Below, piece after piece: positions 4,363 through 17,868 of a stretch of 64,000 bases of DNA (its first letter is position 1; each line of letters begins with the position of its first letter). The notes beneath the pieces are model-generated. The model worked only from the letters and a program-made list of their open reading frames with translations. It was not told the DNA's origin and made no database searches. Both the position numbers and the translations under genes were made by a program. Source of the DNA: Oscillatoriales cyanobacterium (GTDB lineage: Bacteria; Cyanobacteriota; Cyanobacteriia; Cyanobacteriales; Laspinemataceae); the NCBI GenBank assembly GCA_011390955.1, contig JAABRM010000001.1, positions 46,694 through 110,693 of the forward strand. Direction: 5' to 3'.

Positions 4363-6774
4363 ATGTTGTTGGAGGTGAAATTGAATCCCAAAGAAGACTC
4401 TGTACTAAATTCTACTGCTGCATCTGAACGATCGCGATCTGACCATGATGGGATCCTTAACCAGTCATGGCCAGAGGTATTTTATGCGTATTTCCCGGCG
4501 ATCGCCTTGACCCTTGATGCCGCAGGATTTGTCCGTTGGGCGAATCAATGGGCAGAACAATCCCTGGGTTATCTTCAAGGGGAATTAATTGGCAAATCTT
4601 TTGCGGAGATGCTGGAAGCATCAGAATGGGATTTACTGGTAGAAGAAATCAAGATTGATTCGGATCCAGTCGGTATAGTGAAAACTTGGGATACTTGTCT
4701 GAAAAAGAAAGATGGCAGTTTTTGTTGTCTGAGACTGACCCTGCGCTCCCTCGCCGCTAATGCAGAATTATTCCCCGATCGCCCCTCATCCCAATTAGTG
4801 AATTCTCCACTGATTATTTTGGTAGTGGGACAGACAATTACCCCACAGAAACATGAGAGTTTATGGGCAGAAAAATTACAGCGATCGCTGGCATTGTTGC
4901 AAGGGTTTATCGCATCCAGTCCCAATGGGATTATGCTCGAAGATAGTGATGGAGAAATTATCGCCTGCAACGAGCGATTTCGCCAACTCTGGGGACTGTC
5001 CAGGGGAGAGACAAATCGGTCATCCCAGTCTGAACTTGAGGCGATCGCCCAGCAATTAAAAAATCCCGCAGCTTTTCAAGCGCAACTTCAGCAATTTTCG
5101 GCAAAATCTGATGCCTTCGGCGATCGATTGCTGGAATTAAAAGATGGTCGCATTTTTGAATTTTCCACCCAACCGCAACGCTGGCAAAACCAAATTGTAG
5201 GCCGAATTTGGGTTTTCCAAGATATTACGGAGCGATCGCAGACTCAAGCCACCCTCAAATTCACCCAATCATCCATCGCTCGCAGTGCGGAAGCCGCCTT
5301 TTGGTTATCCGCTGATGGTCGTTTCTGCTATGTCAACGATGCCGCTTGCCGTTCCTTGGGATATCCTCGGGAACAGTTACTAGAAATGACGATTTTTGAC
5401 ATTAACCCAGATTTGTCAGAAACCGACTGGCAACAACAATGGCAAGATTTAAAACAACGGGGTTCTTTTCATTTAAAATCTCATCAACTGTCAGGAAAAG
5501 GGACAACCACTCCCTTAGAAGTCACCGTAAATTATGTCGAGTTTAAAGGAGAAGCTTATGGCTGTTCTTTTATTCATCAGCTTTCCCAAGCGAAAGAAAC
5601 AGATTTAATCCGGCGCCAAGAACAAGAACGACAGAAACTCCTGGGACAAATTGCCACAAAAATTCGCCAATCCCTGAATGCTCAAGAAATTTTGCAAACT
5701 ACGGTGGATGAAGTTCGGCAATTGTTAAATACTGACCGGGTATTGGTTTTCCGCTTTAATCCCGATTGGACTGGGCAAGTGATCGTAGAATCCGTGGGAG
5801 CGGATTCTTTGGCTATTTTAAACGAAAAAATTCACGACCCATGCTTTGAAGCCCGCTATATTCTCCCGTATCAAGAAGGAAGAGTTAAAGCAACTGAAGA
5901 TATCTATACGGCGAATCTAACTCAATGTCATCTAGATTTATTATCGCGATTTCACGTTAGAGCAAATTTAGTGGTGCCGATTCTCTTTAATCAAGAAATT
6001 AAACATCAAGAAATTCAACAGCTATCTGATGAGGAAACGGAAAGTTTACCCGATGAAGGATTAGGGGAAGATATACCAAAAGTAGAGCATTCTAAGTTAT
6101 GGGGTCTGTTGGTTGCCCATCAATGTCGTAGTCCTCGGCAGTGGCAATTGTGGGAAATGAATTTACTGCAACAATTGGGAGTTCATGTGGCGATCGCGAT
6201 TCAACAATCCACCTTATTTGAACAACTCCAAGCCACGAACAAAGAGTTAGAACGTCTTGCCAGTTATGACGGTCTGACCCAAGTGGCTAATCGTCGTTTA
6301 TTTGATAATTTCTTACAGAAAGAATGGCGGCGAATGCTCCGAGAAGAATCTTGGTTATCCTTGATTCTGTGTGATATTGATTACTTTAAACCTTACAATG
6401 ACACCTACGGCCATTTAGCTGGGGATAGTTGTTTGCAACAAGTGGCAGCAGCGATTAGTTCTGTGGTCAAACGTCCCGCTGATTTAGTCGCCCGTTATGG
6501 GGGGGAAGAGTTTGCGATTATTCTACCGAATACCCACTTATCTGGTGCGGTAAAAGTTGGGGAAAAAATTTGCGCCCAAATCAATCAGTTGAAAATTCCT
6601 CACCAGGGATCTTTAGTGTCTCATCAAATTACCCTCAGTTTAGGAATTGCCAGTATTTTTCCTCATCCCGATGAATCACCCAAAATTTTGATTAATGCCG
6701 CAGATCGGGCATTATATCGAGCCAAAGAACAAGGACGCGATCGCATCTGCACCAACAAAGTTTCTTGCTTTTAA
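4363..6774 (+). CDS. sensory diguanylate cyclase, PAS-PAS-PAS-GAF-GGDEF
   Basis: C-terminal GGDEF domain with intact '[12 protein letters not shown]' active-site motif and '[14 protein letters not shown]' linker. Upstream GAF-like segment ('[19 protein letters not shown]'...'[17 protein letters not shown]') and several PAS-like blocks. Confidence 0.85.
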
Positions 6775-9823: not shown

Positions 9824-10783
9824 ATGCCGACTTATACTGGAATTTCGAGTGAAGCATTTCGCCATCCCCTCGATCGCGAAGCGGAGGAAGCTTTACGCAG
9901 TTTACCGGGATTTGAACTCCTAGCCAGCAAATTTGTAGAATTTATCTATGAACGGCCTCAATTTGTCTATCACATGGGCAACAGTATCCAAGTTGGCCCG
10001 CGTCAGTATCCCACTTTGTACGGAATTTTTCGGGAATGTGTCAGGGATTTAGATGTTTATCCAGAACCGACTCTGTTTGTCAGCCAAAATCCGGTGGTGA
10101 ATGCCTATTCTCTGGGTAAAGAACATCCATATATTGTGATGAATACGGGGCTGTTAGATATTCTCAATGAAACAGAACTTCGCTCGGTGATTGCCCATGA
10201 ACTTGGCCATATTAAATGCGAACATACTATTTTAATTCAAATGGCAATTTGGGCGATTAACTTTGCTTCAACTTTAGGAGAAATGACGATGGGCTTAGGC
10301 AATTTAATCGGCAGCGGCTTGATTTTCGCGTTTTATGAATGGCGACGAAAAGCAGAATTATCGGCAGATCGCGCTTCCCTGTTGGTGATGGATGATTTAA
10401 ATCCAGTGATGTATAGCATGATGAAAATTGCCGGGGGAAGTGGCAATTTTAGCCATGAATGTCACTTAGATGAATTTATTAAACAGTCGGAAAATTATCA
10501 GGAACTTGATGATGATAATCTGAATCAGTTGTATAAGTTTTTACTGTACAACGGGGCACAAGGTATGATGTTAAGTCATCCGTTTCCCGTGGAACGCCTC
10601 AGCTATTTACGAGAATGGGCAGTTTCACGAGAATATCAACAAATTAGAGCGGGGAATTATGCTCGGGCAGGGGCACAAGGTTCGGTGCCGGTGCGGTCTG
10701 AATCCTCATCGGATGAAGCGGAAAAGTTGCGGCGGCAAATTGAGGAGTTGCAACAACAAATCGATCGCATTAAGTCCAAGTAA
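9824..10783 (+). CDS. M48-family zinc metallopeptidase with C-terminal coiled coil
   Basis: HEXXH motif in 'VIAHELGHIKCEH'. Overall Ste24/HtpX-like layout. C-terminal 'EKLRRQIEELQQQIDRIKSK'. Confidence 0.75.
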   Translation: MPTYTGISSEAFRHPLDREAEEALRSLPGFELLASKFVEFIYERPQFVYHMGNSIQVGPRQYPTLYGIFRECVRDLDVYPEPTLFVSQNPVVNAYSLGKEHPYIVMNTGLLDILNETELRSVIAHELGHIKCEHTILIQMAIWAINFASTLGEMTMGLGNLIGSGLIFAFYEWRRKAELSADRASLLVMDDLNPVMYSMMKIAGGSGNFSHECHLDEFIKQSENYQELDDDNLNQLYKFLLYNGAQGMMLSHPFPVERLSYLREWAVSREYQQIRAGNYARAGAQGSVPVRSESSSDEAEKLRRQIEELQQQIDRIKSK

Positions 10784-10796
10784 TTCAAATTAGTTT

Positions 10797-12164
10797 ATGT
10801 CTAAATACGGCTACCTCTATCGCTTGGTAGGGGCGATCGCCATTTCCTCTGCTATTGTATCCCTGACCCTGGGGACGGTAATGAGATCGCACGAAAATGG
10901 GCGATCGACGAAACCACTCAACCTGTTGGCTGTCTCCAGACCGGCAGATCCGTTTCGAGAAGCGATCGGTCAAGCAACCAGGGCGGCAACTCTGGCTCAA
11001 AGCGCCTTCAGTCCCGCAGACTGGAACAAGGTAGCAATGGCTTGGATCGAGGCAGTGGCTTGGATGCAAACTGTTCCGCCCAATAGTCCTAAGCGGGTAT
11101 TTGCGGAGAAAAAAGTCGCGGAATATTTACAAAATTTCACCTTTGCCCAACGACGGGCAGCGGGAAATTTTGGCCTATCTTATCCCACTTTTAACAGTGA
11201 AATCCTCGATAGACAACTGGAATTGTATTTGTCTTATATTGCCGCAGTGGGCATTCCTGATGTGGCGATAATTGGCAGTTCCCGGGCGTTGCAAGGGATC
11301 GATCCCAGTGTTTTACAGCAAGCCTTGGCTGCCCAGGGTTATCCGGGGTTAAGAATTTTTAACTTTGGCGTCAATGGTGCGACGGCTCAAGTAGTCAATT
11401 TTATGTTGAGCCAATTGTTAACCCCCAACCAACTGCCTCGGATGATTATTTGGGCAGATGGTTTGCGAGCATTTAACAATGGTCGAGTCGATCGCACCTA
11501 CAACGAAATTCTCAATTCTCCGGGCTATCGACTCTTAAGGTCTGGCACTCGCCCCACTTTGGGGTCGCAATTGCCCGCTACCGCCATCAGTGAAGGGACT
11601 TTTCAGAACCAACAGCTTTATAGTTATCACCCCGTGGCTAATTATGCCACCTCAGACCCAAGAGTTTATCGCTTAGTCGGGGAAATTGTTCCGGGAATTT
11701 TAGCCCAAGGGCTCCAGGGAACTTCTCTGTTTGAAGCCATTGATGCCAATGGTTTTAGGGCTGTCTCTACTCGATTTAATCCCTCGGTTTATTATCAACA
11801 AAATCCGCGAGTATCGGGAAATTATGATGGGGACTATGCCCAGTTTCAACTCGGAGGGAGTCAAGAGGCGGCATTGCGATCGGCGGTCGCCCTCACCAAA
11901 GCCCGGAAAATTCCCTTGTTGGTGGTCAACTTGCCCGTGACCAATGACTACCTGGACAGCACCCGCAGTAATCGCCAACAACAATTTCGCCAGTATATGC
12001 AGAATCAGGCGCGATCGCTTGGTTTTGTCTGGCGGGACTATTCTCAAGGAAATCTCAGCCGCAATGATTATTTTGAAGACCCCAGTCACCTCAACCGCTT
12101 TGGCGCAGCGGCAGTAGCGCGGCAACTGGCGGGGGATCAAGCGCTGCGCTGGCCGAGACGGTGA
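10797..12164 (+). CDS. hypothetical membrane-anchored exported protein (possible SGNH/GDSL-like fold, uncertain)
   Basis: N-terminal hydrophobic anchor 'LVGAIAISSAIVSLTLGTV'. Blocks 'AIIGSSRALQGID' and 'NFGVNGATA' are loosely reminiscent of SGNH hydrolase blocks. No firm family assignment. Confidence 0.45.
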   Translation: MSKYGYLYRLVGAIAISSAIVSLTLGTVMRSHENGRSTKPLNLLAVSRPADPFREAIGQATRAATLAQSAFSPADWNKVAMAWIEAVAWMQTVPPNSPKRVFAEKKVAEYLQNFTFAQRRAAGNFGLSYPTFNSEILDRQLELYLSYIAAVGIPDVAIIGSSRALQGIDPSVLQQALAAQGYPGLRIFNFGVNGATAQVVNFMLSQLLTPNQLPRMIIWADGLRAFNNGRVDRTYNEILNSPGYRLLRSGTRPTLGSQLPATAISEGTFQNQQLYSYHPVANYATSDPRVYRLVGEIVPGILAQGLQGTSLFEAIDANGFRAVSTRFNPSVYYQQNPRVSGNYDGDYAQFQLGGSQEAALRSAVALTKARKIPLLVVNLPVTNDYLDSTRSNRQQQFRQYMQNQARSLGFVWRDYSQGNLSRNDYFEDPSHLNRFGAAAVARQLAGDQALRWPRR

Positions 12165-12512: not shown

Positions 12513-12565
12513 TGACCGTTAGCCGTTAGCCGTCAAACGTTAACCGTTAACCGTTAACCGTCAAC
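12513..12565. repeat. hexanucleotide tandem array (CCGTTA/ACCGTT variants)
   Basis: 'ccgttagccgttagccgtcaaacgttaaccgttaaccgttaaccgtcaacggtcaacc'. Confidence 0.7.
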
Positions 12566-12642
12566 GGTCAACCAATAAAGCTTTCTCAGGCGATGACAAA
12601 TTTGATTGGAAATATTCGATTGGAAATAGGAGTATAAACCTT

Positions 12643-13344
12643 ATGGTCGTCTCCACGGGGCAACAAGCAGCTACCCAACTCACGCATTCTCTCCGAGCCA
12701 AACATCCGAAAAAGCATAATCATTACGGGTTTAAGGACTTTTTTCATTTTGATTCTACCCAAGGCACCATTACCGACTGGAATAACGCTCGGAATATTCT
12801 GACCAGTGAAGATTTTATCATTGGTTTAGTGGAAGGATTAGAAGAAGAAGTCGGCCCAGCTTCTTCGGTGATTATGTACACCATTGGCGAAGAATGGGGC
12901 AACAAAGATGCTGCTTTTTTTAAAGAATGGTTTGAAAAAGAATATGAGCGAGAAGTGCGCCAGACTAATTTAATGTTTCTATTAGAAACTTGGTGGTGGC
13001 CTTTTACTTCTCAAGGCTGGGGACGATGGGAAGTCGATTTGAGCGATCGCAAACATGGGTTTATGTTCATTAACTTATTTGATTCTGCCGTAGCTCGCAC
13101 CCTGGGAGACGTGGGCAAACCCGTTTGTTATATCTACGCGGGATTATTTGCCGGTTTCTTTAGTTGCTTAGTGAAAAAACCCCTAAGCTGCATTGAATTG
13201 CAATGCTACTCAATGGGAGAAACTTACTGTAAATTTCTCATCGGCAACAAAGACCGGATTGATGCGGCAGCTTTTTGGCAAAATGAAGGAGCCACCGCTA
13301 ATGATATTCAACGACGAATGCAGTCCGGGGATCGACTAAAATGA
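12643..13344 (+). CDS. V4R (4-vinyl-reductase-like) domain protein, paralog 1
   Basis: C-terminal V4R cysteine signature 'CYIYAGLFAGFFSCLVKKPLSCIELQCYSMGETYCKF'. Paralogous to 14289-14957 ('IIGLVEGLEEEVG' vs 'IDAIYSGLEKETG'). Confidence 0.7.
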   Translation: MVVSTGQQAATQLTHSLRAKHPKKHNHYGFKDFFHFDSTQGTITDWNNARNILTSEDFIIGLVEGLEEEVGPASSVIMYTIGEEWGNKDAAFFKEWFEKEYEREVRQTNLMFLLETWWWPFTSQGWGRWEVDLSDRKHGFMFINLFDSAVARTLGDVGKPVCYIYAGLFAGFFSCLVKKPLSCIELQCYSMGETYCKFLIGNKDRIDAAAFWQNEGATANDIQRRMQSGDRLK

Positions 13345-13616
13345 ACCAGGCAAAGACTTTACTAAAACTATCAGTCGATCGGTTTTTTAGCCAATGCAAC
13401 TGGACTGGTCAACCCCTAGCAATTCTGGAAAATGCCGATCTAGAAACTGTTCCCGAAATTCGCCTGAGTTTATTAGTCAGCGAATATTTCCGCTTACTTC
13501 CCTGGGAAGGAACTCCGATCGTTGGTTCTCTGCCAAAAGTATCGGCTAATGTTGATTTGCTAGAAACCGATCCCCTTGATGATGTCACCCTTGAGGATCT
13601 CCTCGACTCTTTTTAG
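13341..13616 (+). CDS. hypothetical acidic small protein, translationally coupled (ATGA overlap) to the upstream V4R gene
   Basis: Start overlaps the previous stop by 4 nt. No known motif. Confidence 0.4.
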   Translation: MNQAKTLLKLSVDRFFSQCNWTGQPLAILENADLETVPEIRLSLLVSEYFRLLPWEGTPIVGSLPKVSANVDLLETDPLDDVTLEDLLDSF

Positions 13617-13617
13617 A

Positions 13618-13695
13618 GAGTAGGGTGGGCAATATCTTGCCCACCCTACGAATTGCTACAGTAGTAGGGTGGGCAAGATATTGCCCACCCTACAG
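13618..13695. repeat. two tandem perfect palindromes of the GTAGGG...CCCTAC family (terminator-like hairpins)
   Basis: 'gtagggtgggcaatatcttgcccaccctac' and 'gtagggtgggcaagatattgcccaccctac'. They lie immediately after the stop at 13616. Confidence 0.75.
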
Positions 13696-13750
13696 ATAGC
13701 TACAGATAGTTGAAATACTATTTATCCACATCTACCTAAGAATTAACGCT

Positions 13751-14227
13751 ATGCACCCAGAGCTTTTGAGCCTACTAGAAACGGCTGAACAGCGCTACCT
13801 AGAACCGAAAGAGATTGAACTTTATCGTCGCCATGCGGCCTCTTTAAATCGACGCTTACAAGCCTATGAAATGCTGCGAGAACAAGAAACAAAAATTTTT
13901 CAAGCGATCGCCGATAGACTGGTGAATGCATTACCAAATGAAAGCCAAGAAAATTTAGAACGGTGTTTGAAATATTGGCTGTTAATTGTGCGCTATAGTG
14001 CCACAGCGATGCTAATCAACGATCTTTCTTATTTACAAAACCGTTTGCAGGAATGGGTTAAGGGTTTACTAGAAACTTATGAAACCTATCAAATTGATGT
14101 GCAGGTTTATGACTTACTGATGCAGGAATTAAAAAATTACCTATCTCAAGACGATGTGCGGTTATTAGATCCGGTTCTCCAAAAAGCTAAGGATTTAATT
14201 ATCTCTAAGCAACCCGGCAATTCCTGA
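13751..14227 (+). CDS. phycobiliprotein-family (globin-fold, allophycocyanin-like 'Apl'-type) protein, orphan
   Basis: Region 'ERCLKYWLLIVRYSATAMLINDLSYLQNRLQEW' parallels the phycobiliprotein core '[29 protein letters not shown]'; the Cys sits at the chromophore-attachment position followed by the aromatic/LRIVxY block. No partner subunit, linker or lyase genes nearby. Confidence 0.6.
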   Translation: MHPELLSLLETAEQRYLEPKEIELYRRHAASLNRRLQAYEMLREQETKIFQAIADRLVNALPNESQENLERCLKYWLLIVRYSATAMLINDLSYLQNRLQEWVKGLLETYETYQIDVQVYDLLMQELKNYLSQDDVRLLDPVLQKAKDLIISKQPGNS

Positions 14228-14288
14228 AAAGTTAAGCAGAAAAATTGATTCAGTTTCAGCTAATTAAATATGAGGAATAGGAAGCAAA

Positions 14289-14957
14289 ATGATCTCAATT
14301 ACCAATTTGTTGGAAGATAACGATAAACTTTCAGGAAATTATTTTTCCTCGGATGTTTATGTGAAGGGGGATTTAGAGTTAGGACTATTAGAAAATCGTC
14401 GGGGCGATCGCCTCTTGGCTTTACCGGATACCCTGATTGATGCCATTTACAGCGGTTTGGAAAAAGAAACCGGATCTGCCACCCGTTTAGTGCTGTTTAA
14501 TTGTGGTAAATGGTGGGGCAAGAATTTATATGTCCGTTTTTGCGAAGAAATCCAAGATTACTATAATAAATCAATTGCAGAAATGGACATGATTTCGTTT
14601 GTCCAATGTTTACAACAATTTTGGAAAACTCATGGCTGGGGATTATTTGAATTTGACCAAACTTATTATCAACAAGGATTTTTGGTCTTTAAAATTACTA
14701 ATTCTTCTTTTGCCAAGAAAACCGAGAACTGGTCTGGTCCTGCTTGTTTTTTAGAAGCGGGGATTTTAACTAGCTATTTTAGTCAACTCACCGGACGAGA
14801 ACTTACCTGCGTGCAAACCACTTGTGAATCCCTTGGGGCTGATTGTAATCGGTTTATTTTGGGTTTGCCCGACCGTCTGGAACCAGTGGAAGGTTGGGTT
14901 ACAGAAGGTCTAAACCATGACACGATTATGCATCGATTGTCTGAAACCCAAAATTAA
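14289..14957 (+). CDS. V4R (4-vinyl-reductase-like) domain protein, paralog 2
   Basis: V4R signature 'CFLEAGILTSYFSQLTGRELTCVQTTCESLGADCNRF'. Confidence 0.7.
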   Translation: MISITNLLEDNDKLSGNYFSSDVYVKGDLELGLLENRRGDRLLALPDTLIDAIYSGLEKETGSATRLVLFNCGKWWGKNLYVRFCEEIQDYYNKSIAEMDMISFVQCLQQFWKTHGWGLFEFDQTYYQQGFLVFKITNSSFAKKTENWSGPACFLEAGILTSYFSQLTGRELTCVQTTCESLGADCNRFILGLPDRLEPVEGWVTEGLNHDTIMHRLSETQN

Positions 14958-15061: not shown

Positions 15062-15550
15062 TCTGATTTTATAGCACTTGTCAGAGTTATGAAGTACAAA
15101 AAAACCTGTCATTCCCGCCTTCGCGGGAATCCAGAAAACCTCTGTAATCCAGATAATAACCGCTATACAGCCTATTCAGAAATAATCCGATCCAATCTCT
15201 ATAGCACTTGTCATAGTTATGAAGTACAAAAAAACCTGTCATTCCCGCCTTCGCGGGAATCCAGAAAACCTCTGTAATCCAGATAATAACCGCTATACAG
15301 CCTATTCAGAAATAATCCGATCCAATCTCTATAGCACTTGTCATAGTTATGAAGTACAAAAAAACCTGTCATTCCCGCCTTCGCGGGAATCCAGAAAACC
15401 TCTGTACTTCATCCAGATAAGTAGGTGAAAATAATTAATTGCACTTTTCGTTTTCCGCCAATAGGCTTTGGATTCCCGCCTTCGCGGGAATGACAGCCTT
15501 TCTTCTCGTGGGGTCTGTAGTGCATTTATTTCTGCCCACCTACTTAATAA
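15062..15550. repeat. MITE-like composite repeat; left module triplicated as a ~130-bp tandem unit, followed by inverted right module
   Basis: Three near-identical units 'agcacttgtcatagttatgaagtacaaaaaaacctgtcattcccgccttcgcgggaatccagaaaacctctgtaatccagataataaccgctatacagcctattcagaaataatccgatccaatctctat'. These are followed by 'ggattcccgccttcgcgggaatgacagcc...tttatttctgcccacctactta'. Confidence 0.8.
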
Positions 15551-17732: not shown

Positions 17733-17868
17733 TCTGTAAGGTGGGCAAAATTTGCCCACCCTACTATTATTAATCGATCTTGTAAATCTTGTAAGGTGGG
17801 CAAAATTTGCCCACCCTACTATTATTAATCGATCTTGTAAGGTGGGCAAAATTTGCCCACCCTACGAT
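17733..17868. repeat. three tandem perfect palindromes (GTAAGGTGGGCAAAATTTGCCCACCCTAC) with ~45-bp period, GTAGGG...CCCTAC family
   Basis: Direct reading. They occupy the whole intergenic space between two co-oriented minus-strand genes. Confidence 0.8.

Follow-up and report, generated by a model that had tools for sequence, protein, structure and literature searches.

The slr0144–slr0149 gene cluster of Synechocystis sp. PCC 6803, also known as a pap or BBAG (bilin-biosynthesis-associated globin) cluster, was reportedly published by Wegener in 2008. Cyanobacterial clusters of this kind, which are described as "quite variable", combine a BBAG, two V4R-domain proteins (the two paralogous clades contribute one each), and an iron-sulfur (Fe-S) protein (Rockwell, Martin and Lagarias 2023, PMC10151467). 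Their ancestry lies in pre-PcyA bilin-biosynthesis clusters of heterotrophic bacteria; bilin binding was shown for the BBAG-1, -2, and -3 proteins tested, and the Cys-x-Arg-Asp (CXRD) motif of phycobiliproteins is retained in some cyanobacterial BBAGs (PMC10151467). In Synechocystis, the operon is transcribed as one unit (PMC4195498), interactions among Slr0144–Slr0149 were validated by affinity purification and mass spectrometry (PMC9880817), Slr0144 and Slr0147 are recognised V4R paralogues (bioRxiv 10.1101/2025.11.06.686923), and links have been drawn to how photosystem II (PSII) is assembled and repaired and to the iron and redox response (PMC4853703, PMC9145668). In Acaryochloris, genes named apcA are slr0149 homologues flanked by homologues of slr0144–0148 (Partensky et al., PMC6002478). 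Here, we describe a related locus in a 64,000-nucleotide stretch of DNA (the window) from an Oscillatoriales cyanobacterium of the family Laspinemataceae (assembly GCA_011390955.1, contig JAABRM010000001.1, positions 46,694 to 110,693 of the forward strand). Four adjacent genes encode a V4R protein (V4R-A), a small conserved protein (S91), a phycobiliprotein-related globin, and a second V4R protein (V4R-B). We consider it very likely that they are the slr0144–0147-type core of the known pap/BBAG cluster. The kind of system is already known and the window adds no new kind.

Gene order and relationship to the pap/BBAG cluster

The four genes form one operon. Their open reading frames (ORFs) are arranged head to tail on the same strand, and the start of S91 overlaps the stop of V4R-A as ATGA (table 1). 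An earlier note on this DNA, made from its letters alone, had described a four-gene module in which two paralogous V4R proteins flank a coupled small ORF and a phycobiliprotein-like globin, and the ORF list and Pfam domain calls mostly bear out that layout. Both outer proteins match the Pfam V4R family PF02830 (78.8 bits, E = 3.3e-22 for V4R-A and 54.7 bits, E = 1.1e-14 for V4R-B; cut-off 31) and are paralogous from end to end (23% identity, E = 3e-29). The profile built for each scores its own paralogue far above the other (477 vs 97 bits for V4R-A, 394 vs 107 bits for V4R-B). The operon holds one V4R protein per paralogous clade together with an in-cluster phycobiliprotein-related globin, as published clusters do.

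Table 1. Features of the operon, with coordinates in the window
Feature	Coordinates	Strand	Description
V4R-A (Slr0144 type; = V4R-1)	12643..13344	+	233 amino acids, full-length stand-alone V4R protein
S91, small conserved protein (Slr0145 equivalent by position)	13341..13616	+	91 amino acids, translationally coupled to V4R-A
Tandem palindrome pair, S91–globin gap	13619..13705	no strand	two copies, 44-nucleotide period
In-cluster globin BBAG1 (Slr0146 type)	13751..14227	+	158 amino acids, degenerate chromophore motif C72-L-K-Y75
V4R-B (Slr0147 type; = V4R-2)	14289..14957	+	222 amino acids, second stand-alone V4R protein

The gene order is conserved across cyanobacteria, a check that the earlier note had proposed. 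When one genome per GTDB species was scanned, relatives of V4R-A turned up in 520 genomes, and the best 80 of the 520 loci were fetched; the synteny set of 84 loci consists of 83 fetched loci and the window and spans ∼80 cyanobacterial species. ORFs were called in every locus and then classed by iterated profile searches seeded with the window proteins. The order V4R-A > S91 > globin > V4R-B is present in 77 of 84 loci, which is every locus long enough to show it, the other seven being truncated by contig ends. This arrangement is far beyond chance, and the comparison identifies V4R-A, S91, the globin, and V4R-B as the invariant core. V4R-A has a median identity of 75% to its window counterpart, a value biased upward because loci were chosen by V4R-A similarity. 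The medians for V4R-B, the globin, and S91 are 63%, 41%, and 33%. Judged by sequence conservation, V4R-A is by far the most constrained component, as it is also 63–80% identical across orders, to proteins of Laspinema, Planktothrix, Limnospira, Chroococcidiopsis, Thermosynechococcus, Nodosilinea, Prochlorothrix, and others.

The smallest member, S91, has no match in Pfam or NCBIfam, and a profile search returned 275 homologues that are almost all unnamed or "hypothetical", with a single JGI label of DUF2249. Its pattern of conservation nonetheless marks the ORF as a real, conserved gene. Of the 84 loci, 83 contain a homologue, which overlaps V4R-A as ATGA in 66 of them. The protein carries an internal duplication of the motif SVxxFFxxxNWxGxP (LSVDRFFSQCNWTGQP and LLVSEYFRLLPWEGTP) and ends in an invariant T..D....F. 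In an Oscillatoriales metagenome-assembled genome (locus L018, 7702–10217), ∼2.5 kb are inserted between V4R-A and S91, breaking the otherwise universal coupling.

Plasmid pREC3 of Acaryochloris marina MBIC10699 (NZ_AP026078.1, 265565–268873), recovered by a tblastn search of annotated plasmids, connects the window by orthology and shared gene order to the cluster equated with slr0144–slr0149. Its PLSDB gene table lists a V4R protein, a hypothetical protein, a V4R protein, a 2Fe-2S protein, and an "allophycocyanin", and an unlisted S91 homologue overlaps the first V4R gene. The best pREC3 match of each window protein is its positional counterpart, with identities of 64% (V4R-A), 36% (S91), 34% (globin), and 51% (V4R-B). 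The window globin is closer to the "hypothetical protein" located between the V4R genes than to the "allophycocyanin" (25%). Both loci share the order V4R, S91 homologue, globin, V4R. Unlike the window, the pREC3 cluster continues with the 2Fe-2S protein and a CXRD-bearing globin (C-R-R-D), which is the one annotated as allophycocyanin, its in-cluster globin lacks the attachment Cys, and its S91 homologue (locus L084, 6693–7031; not entered in the incomplete PLSDB gene table) has three SVxxFFxxxNWxGxP repeats rather than two. The "allophycocyanin" label of the second globin is likely a misannotation, as has been pointed out (PMC6002478).

Set beside the Synechocystis cluster, the window locus shows both likenesses and differences. 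In slr0144–slr0149 as in the window, two paralogous stand-alone V4R proteins bracket two small genes, one of them encoding a globin; neither cluster has a heme oxygenase or bilin reductase, and both are widely but patchily distributed in cyanobacteria. Unlike slr0144–slr0149, the window locus ends after the second V4R gene. Genes of the Slr0148 and Slr0149 types are neither adjacent nor elsewhere in the 64-kb window, and the same is true of the ferredoxin, TPR, and kinase genes represented in Synechocystis by slr0150–0152. The window cluster is instead flanked by genes for an M48 peptidase, a DUF1574 protein, and a WD40 protein.

A second PF00502 globin occurs near the module in 35 of 84 loci, always adjoining a ∼160-amino acid protein with a 2Fe-2S ferredoxin domain (PF00111). 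The pair is either directly upstream on the same strand (Fe-S > globin 2 > V4R-A, and onward) or downstream on the opposite strand. The 2Fe-2S component of described clusters is absent from the window, where a tblastn search of all 64 kb with the Planktothrix Fe-S protein gave a best E of 3.1. The window also has no other globin, phycobiliprotein, or V4R ORF, no lyase gene, and no alpha/beta partner. The earlier note had called the globin an orphan without partner genes. This is accurate for the window but not for the family, whose partners, the 2Fe-2S protein and the second globin, adjoin the module in those 35 loci. Other genes recur beside the Fe-S/second-globin pair: a Ser/Thr kinase and a 103-amino acid ORF in Planktothrix (L047, 11910–14263), and a common ∼270-amino acid protein ("FLNLPG...") in L014 and L082 at about 5000–5900. 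These may be further cluster members, as are slr0150–0152.

The in-cluster globin and its chromophore site

The globin is a degenerate relative of phycobiliproteins, of the Slr0146 type found within these clusters. Its placement in the Pfam Phycobilisome family, which the earlier note had left to profile searches, is upheld (PF00502, 37.9 bits; cut-off 22.2). An AlphaFold model built from a 90-sequence alignment has a predicted local distance difference test (pLDDT) score of 90.3. When this model was searched against the PDB, the 50 matches listed were all phycobiliprotein chains (TM 0.59–0.71 over ∼160 columns, 14–22% identity), and the protein is therefore assigned a phycobiliprotein fold. 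Its helical globin-like architecture, N-terminal helix pair included, is that of ApcA/B/F, CpcA/B, and the Apl class. A sequence search of solved structures returned phycobiliproteins only, all weakly, with ApcF as the best match (7ext_Q3, E = 4e-4). A profile search of 1.84 billion cluster representatives found 256 clusters related to the globin, and the drop from 309 bits for its own cluster to 141 bits for the next indicates a family that evolves fast.

The chromophore region is where the globin departs from light-harvesting phycobiliproteins. The earlier note had drawn a parallel between the two regions that included the Cys of bilin attachment. Part of this parallel stands: Cys72 aligns with the first residue of "CLRD" in ApcF, where light-harvesting phycobiliproteins have Cys81/82, and a conserved R-Y follows downstream. 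The rest does not, because the motif is C-L-K-Y and not C-x-R-D. Nearer relatives of the globin carry "LE[RQ][SAC][LI]K[HNQY][WA]", and the canonical "C-x-R-D" is found in distant relatives only. Among 80 orthologues of the in-cluster globin, position 72 is Ser in 53, Cys in 12, Ala in seven, and another residue in eight, and position 75, canonically Asp, is His in 31, Asn in 31, Gln in nine, Tyr in four (the state in the window), and Asp in one. Among 35 sequences of the second globin, position 72 is Cys in nine and Trp in 26, and position 75 is Asp in all 35. Being a minority state among orthologues, Cys72 is possibly a relic in a subfamily without the canonical bilin site. From these residue patterns, we suggest that covalent bilin binding is unlikely to be the mode of action of the family, and that it may occur in particular lineages.

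These data bear on the more specific proposal of the earlier note, an orphan phycobiliprotein of the Apl type, taken here to mean a globin that carries a bilin covalently on Cys72 and V4R proteins that deliver or attach the chromophore. The alignment of Cys72 with the attachment Cys of ApcF, the complete predicted fold, and the retention of the Cys in 21 of 23 close relatives (at least 72% identity) are consistent with such a protein, as are the bilin binding of the non-cyanobacterial BBAGs tested and the retention of CXRD in some cyanobacterial BBAGs (PMC10151467). Yet two of the same close relatives have Ser, the Cys is not conserved across the wider set of orthologues, and the Asp of CXRD is replaced by Tyr. 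Scores against the NCBIfam ApcA, ApcB, CpeB, and CpcB equivalog models are 12–19 bits, about 10-fold under the cut-offs of 228–279. The globin is 15–22% identical to light-harvesting phycobiliproteins and those of the Apl class and, unlike them, has no alpha/beta partner, linker, or lyase gene. Its location differs as well, since aplA genes of marine Synechococcus sit in phycobilisome rod gene regions (PMC6363710) and the window gene is in a V4R operon. We consider the Apl-type explanation very unlikely, and on motif conservation and model scores the assignment as an Apl-type, covalently chromophorylated phycobiliprotein was rejected.

V4R cysteines and a possible role in tetrapyrrole handling

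The cysteines of the V4R proteins suggest a bound metal. The earlier note had assigned both proteins the signature C-x4-G-x8-C-x8-C-x2-C-x3-G-x3-C, which neither matches. The spacing in V4R-A is C162-x4-G-x7-C175-x7-C183-x4-C188-x3-G-x3-C196, and in V4R-B it is C153-x4-G-x15-C174-x4-C179-x3-G-x2-C186. C162, C183, E185, C188, and C196 are invariant across all 84 V4R-A sequences. Four of these residues, C162, E185, C188, and C196, align with the C...E..C.......C zinc-ligand pattern of PoxR (5fru) and MopR (5kbe). The zinc of DmpR has three Cys ligands and a Glu ligand (Cys151, Glu172, Cys177, and Cys185; PMC7264223), and the Cys–Cys spacings of V4R-A, 26 and 8 residues, are the same as in DmpR. 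V4R-B retains the ligand set in part: C153, C174, and C179 are conserved, a Gln occupies the position of the Glu, and C186 is a Cys in 45 of 77 sequences. We infer that the V4R cysteines are best read as a putative structural metal site beside a small-ligand pocket, of the zinc-site type found in XylR, DmpR, and PoxR. The 13 best fold matches of the V4R-A model are all sensory domains of DmpR, PoxR, or MopR, over 160–215 columns. V4R-A and V4R-B resemble the sensory (A) domains of these phenol sensors in having a V4R domain and the zinc-ligand pattern. They differ in being stand-alone proteins without an AAA+ or DNA-binding output domain; Pfam finds no output, DNA-binding, or further domain in either. 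V4R-A also has the extra invariant Cys183, which is absent from the phenol sensors.

Alternatively, the same cysteines could work like those of archaeal MsvR, as a thiol or metal switch within a redox- or metal-sensing module that signals by protein–protein contact; the globin would then be a mere scaffold, with no tetrapyrrole taking part. The V4R part of MsvR is the best NCBIfam match of both V4R proteins (38 bits), cysteines modulate DNA binding by MsvR (PMC3729527), and four Cys are invariant in V4R-A, including C183. The response of the Synechocystis operon to iron limitation and oxidative stress (PMC4853703) and the presence of a 2Fe-2S protein in the wider cluster also fit this possibility. 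Membership in the MsvR family itself (NF053755) was rejected because the match, at ∼38 bits, falls far under the cut-off of 220, is limited to the V4R part, and comes without a helix-turn-helix. Moreover, neither V4R protein has an output domain, the Cys/Glu pattern fits a structural zinc site, and the link by descent to clusters with heme oxygenase and ferredoxin-dependent bilin reductase, together with the retained phycobiliprotein fold, favours a tetrapyrrole ligand (PMC10151467). A sensing module of this type is unlikely.

A role in pigment biosynthesis is extremely unlikely. In that case, the V4R proteins would be BchJ-like components of a 4-vinyl (8-vinyl) reductase acting on chlorophyll precursors. 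The V4R domain is named after BchJ and the BchJ model TIGR02019 gives a weak match, but its 16.6 bits are far below the cut-off of 74.3, by which membership was rejected, and Pfam detects no reductase or cofactor-binding domain. In cyanobacteria, 8-vinyl reduction is carried out by BciA or BciB.

For the pap/BBAG core itself, we tentatively propose a mechanism, drawn from the descent of the cluster and the data from Synechocystis, in which two zinc-bearing V4R pockets, an adaptor, and a noncanonical globin handle a tetrapyrrole during photosystem biogenesis. The products would assemble into a cytoplasmic or thylakoid-associated complex. Within it, the two zinc-stabilised small-ligand pockets of the V4R proteins and the globin with its phycobiliprotein fold would bind or pass on a tetrapyrrole, which could be a bilin or a chlorophyll-related intermediate, and the complex would act in assembly or repair of photosystems, mainly PSII. 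S91, made in a fixed ratio with V4R-A through translational coupling, is probably the adaptor. Because the canonical Cys-x-Arg-Asp site is lost, the globin most likely binds noncovalently or is a structural partner of the second, Asp-retaining globin; a role as a covalently chromophorylated phycobiliprotein is unlikely. As a combined explanation, cluster identity together with this mechanism is rather probable. The general idea of the earlier note, a unit that handles or senses bilins or tetrapyrroles, fits what is proposed for these clusters (PMC10151467); its particulars, namely the Apl type, the attachment Cys, orphan status, and the Cys signature, did not survive.

Several points weigh against the proposal. 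The bilin-binding experiments used non-cyanobacterial BBAGs, and some of the photosystem phenotypes in Synechocystis may stem from the adjacent slr0150–0152 (PMC10151467). The predicted structure of V4R-A is of low confidence (pLDDT 62), and for this reason its resemblance to phenol sensors is only suggestive. The assignments of S91 and the globin to slr0145 and slr0146 rest on gene order and the Acaryochloris bridge. Lastly, the 64-kb window holds neither the 2Fe-2S gene nor the second globin, so a "complete" complex cannot be shown for this organism.

Another possibility, which we regard as doubtful, is that the four-gene core is self-sufficient. The Slr0146-type globin would then be a distinct subfamily without canonical covalent bilin binding, acting as an alpha-like partner or as a noncovalent carrier, with S91 as a tether and a stem-loop setting expression. 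In one version, the globin, devoid of chromophore, would pair as an "alpha-like" subunit with the second globin, which retains the Asp, to give a primitive phycobiliprotein-related alpha/beta pair; in the other, it would carry a different tetrapyrrole noncovalently. In both versions, S91, with its two or three "FFxxxNWxG" repeats, would link the globin to both V4R pockets, and a recurrent stem-loop in the S91–globin gap would determine how strongly the two operon halves are expressed relative to each other.

The cluster is of interest because it is linked to assembly of both PSII and photosystem I and because its presumed forerunners are the ancestral bilin-biosynthesis clusters that gave rise to phycobiliproteins. 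The window locus gives no new handle on its biochemical role in cyanobacteria. The comparison across loci, in which the in-cluster globin has lost CXRD and the second globin beside the Fe-S gene keeps its Asp, provides sharper targets for tests.

Hairpins, repeats, and flanking genes

Two tandem perfect hairpins separate the second and third genes, as the earlier note had reported. Each is a perfect palindrome of 30 nucleotides, GTAGGGTGGGCAA-N4-TTGCCCACCCTAC, with a 13-bp stem. The copies, at 13620–13649 and 13664–13693, are exact reverse complements of each other, and the region can thus form two hairpins or one 30-bp stem. The 161-nucleotide region with the hairpins has a predicted folding energy of -75.7 kcal/mol and z = -10.7. 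The two closest genomes, L001 and L002, have a single copy of the palindrome at the same place. Three further tandem copies of the palindrome family, TGTAAGGTGGGCAAAATTTGCCCACCCTAC, are located between two minus-strand genes at 17735–17864 of the window. These copies elsewhere, together with the single copies in L001 and L002, indicate a dispersed palindromic repeat that was duplicated in the operon gap, rather than a feature specific to the module. No Rfam family reaches threshold for the hairpins, no T-run follows them, and a terminator scan does not call them, and on these grounds a known RNA and an intrinsic terminator were rejected.

Across species, the S91–globin gap is enriched in stable structures that are unrelated in sequence. 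With every region scored against dinucleotide shuffles, loci with z < -3 number 19 of 57 for this gap, compared to 3 of 56 for the gap between the globin and V4R-B, 5 of 84 upstream of V4R-A, and 14 of 76 downstream of V4R-B. The S91–globin gap may be a tolerated landing site for repeats. Alternatively, a stem-loop in this position may tune the expression ratio of the two halves of the operon.

The neighbours of the operon in the window encode an M48 peptidase, DUF1574, WD40, DUF1822/HEAT, and PAS-GAF-GGDEF proteins, a kinase, and an NB-ARC protein, and are unrelated to the module. The M48 peptidase and DUF1574 genes directly upstream (9824–12164) are each found in five to six of 84 loci, and both in four. 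They are restricted to the closest relatives, L001, L002, L003, and L005, with DUF1574 alone in L003, and are therefore a lineage-specific context outside the module.

Other repeats border the operon. A tandem array of the heptamer ACCGTTA (8.4 copies; 12515–12573) lies ∼70 nucleotides upstream of the V4R-A start and is followed by a 14-nucleotide direct repeat at 12600–12628. The array resembles a cyanobacterial short tandem repeat, and a similar heptamer array, TGTTAAC, lies inside the operon of L061. Just downstream of V4R-B, a 130-nucleotide unit is present in 2.6 copies of 99% identity (15070–15406) and yields identical 51-amino acid ORFs at 15087–15242 and 15217–15372. This unit is probably a recently amplified repeat element.

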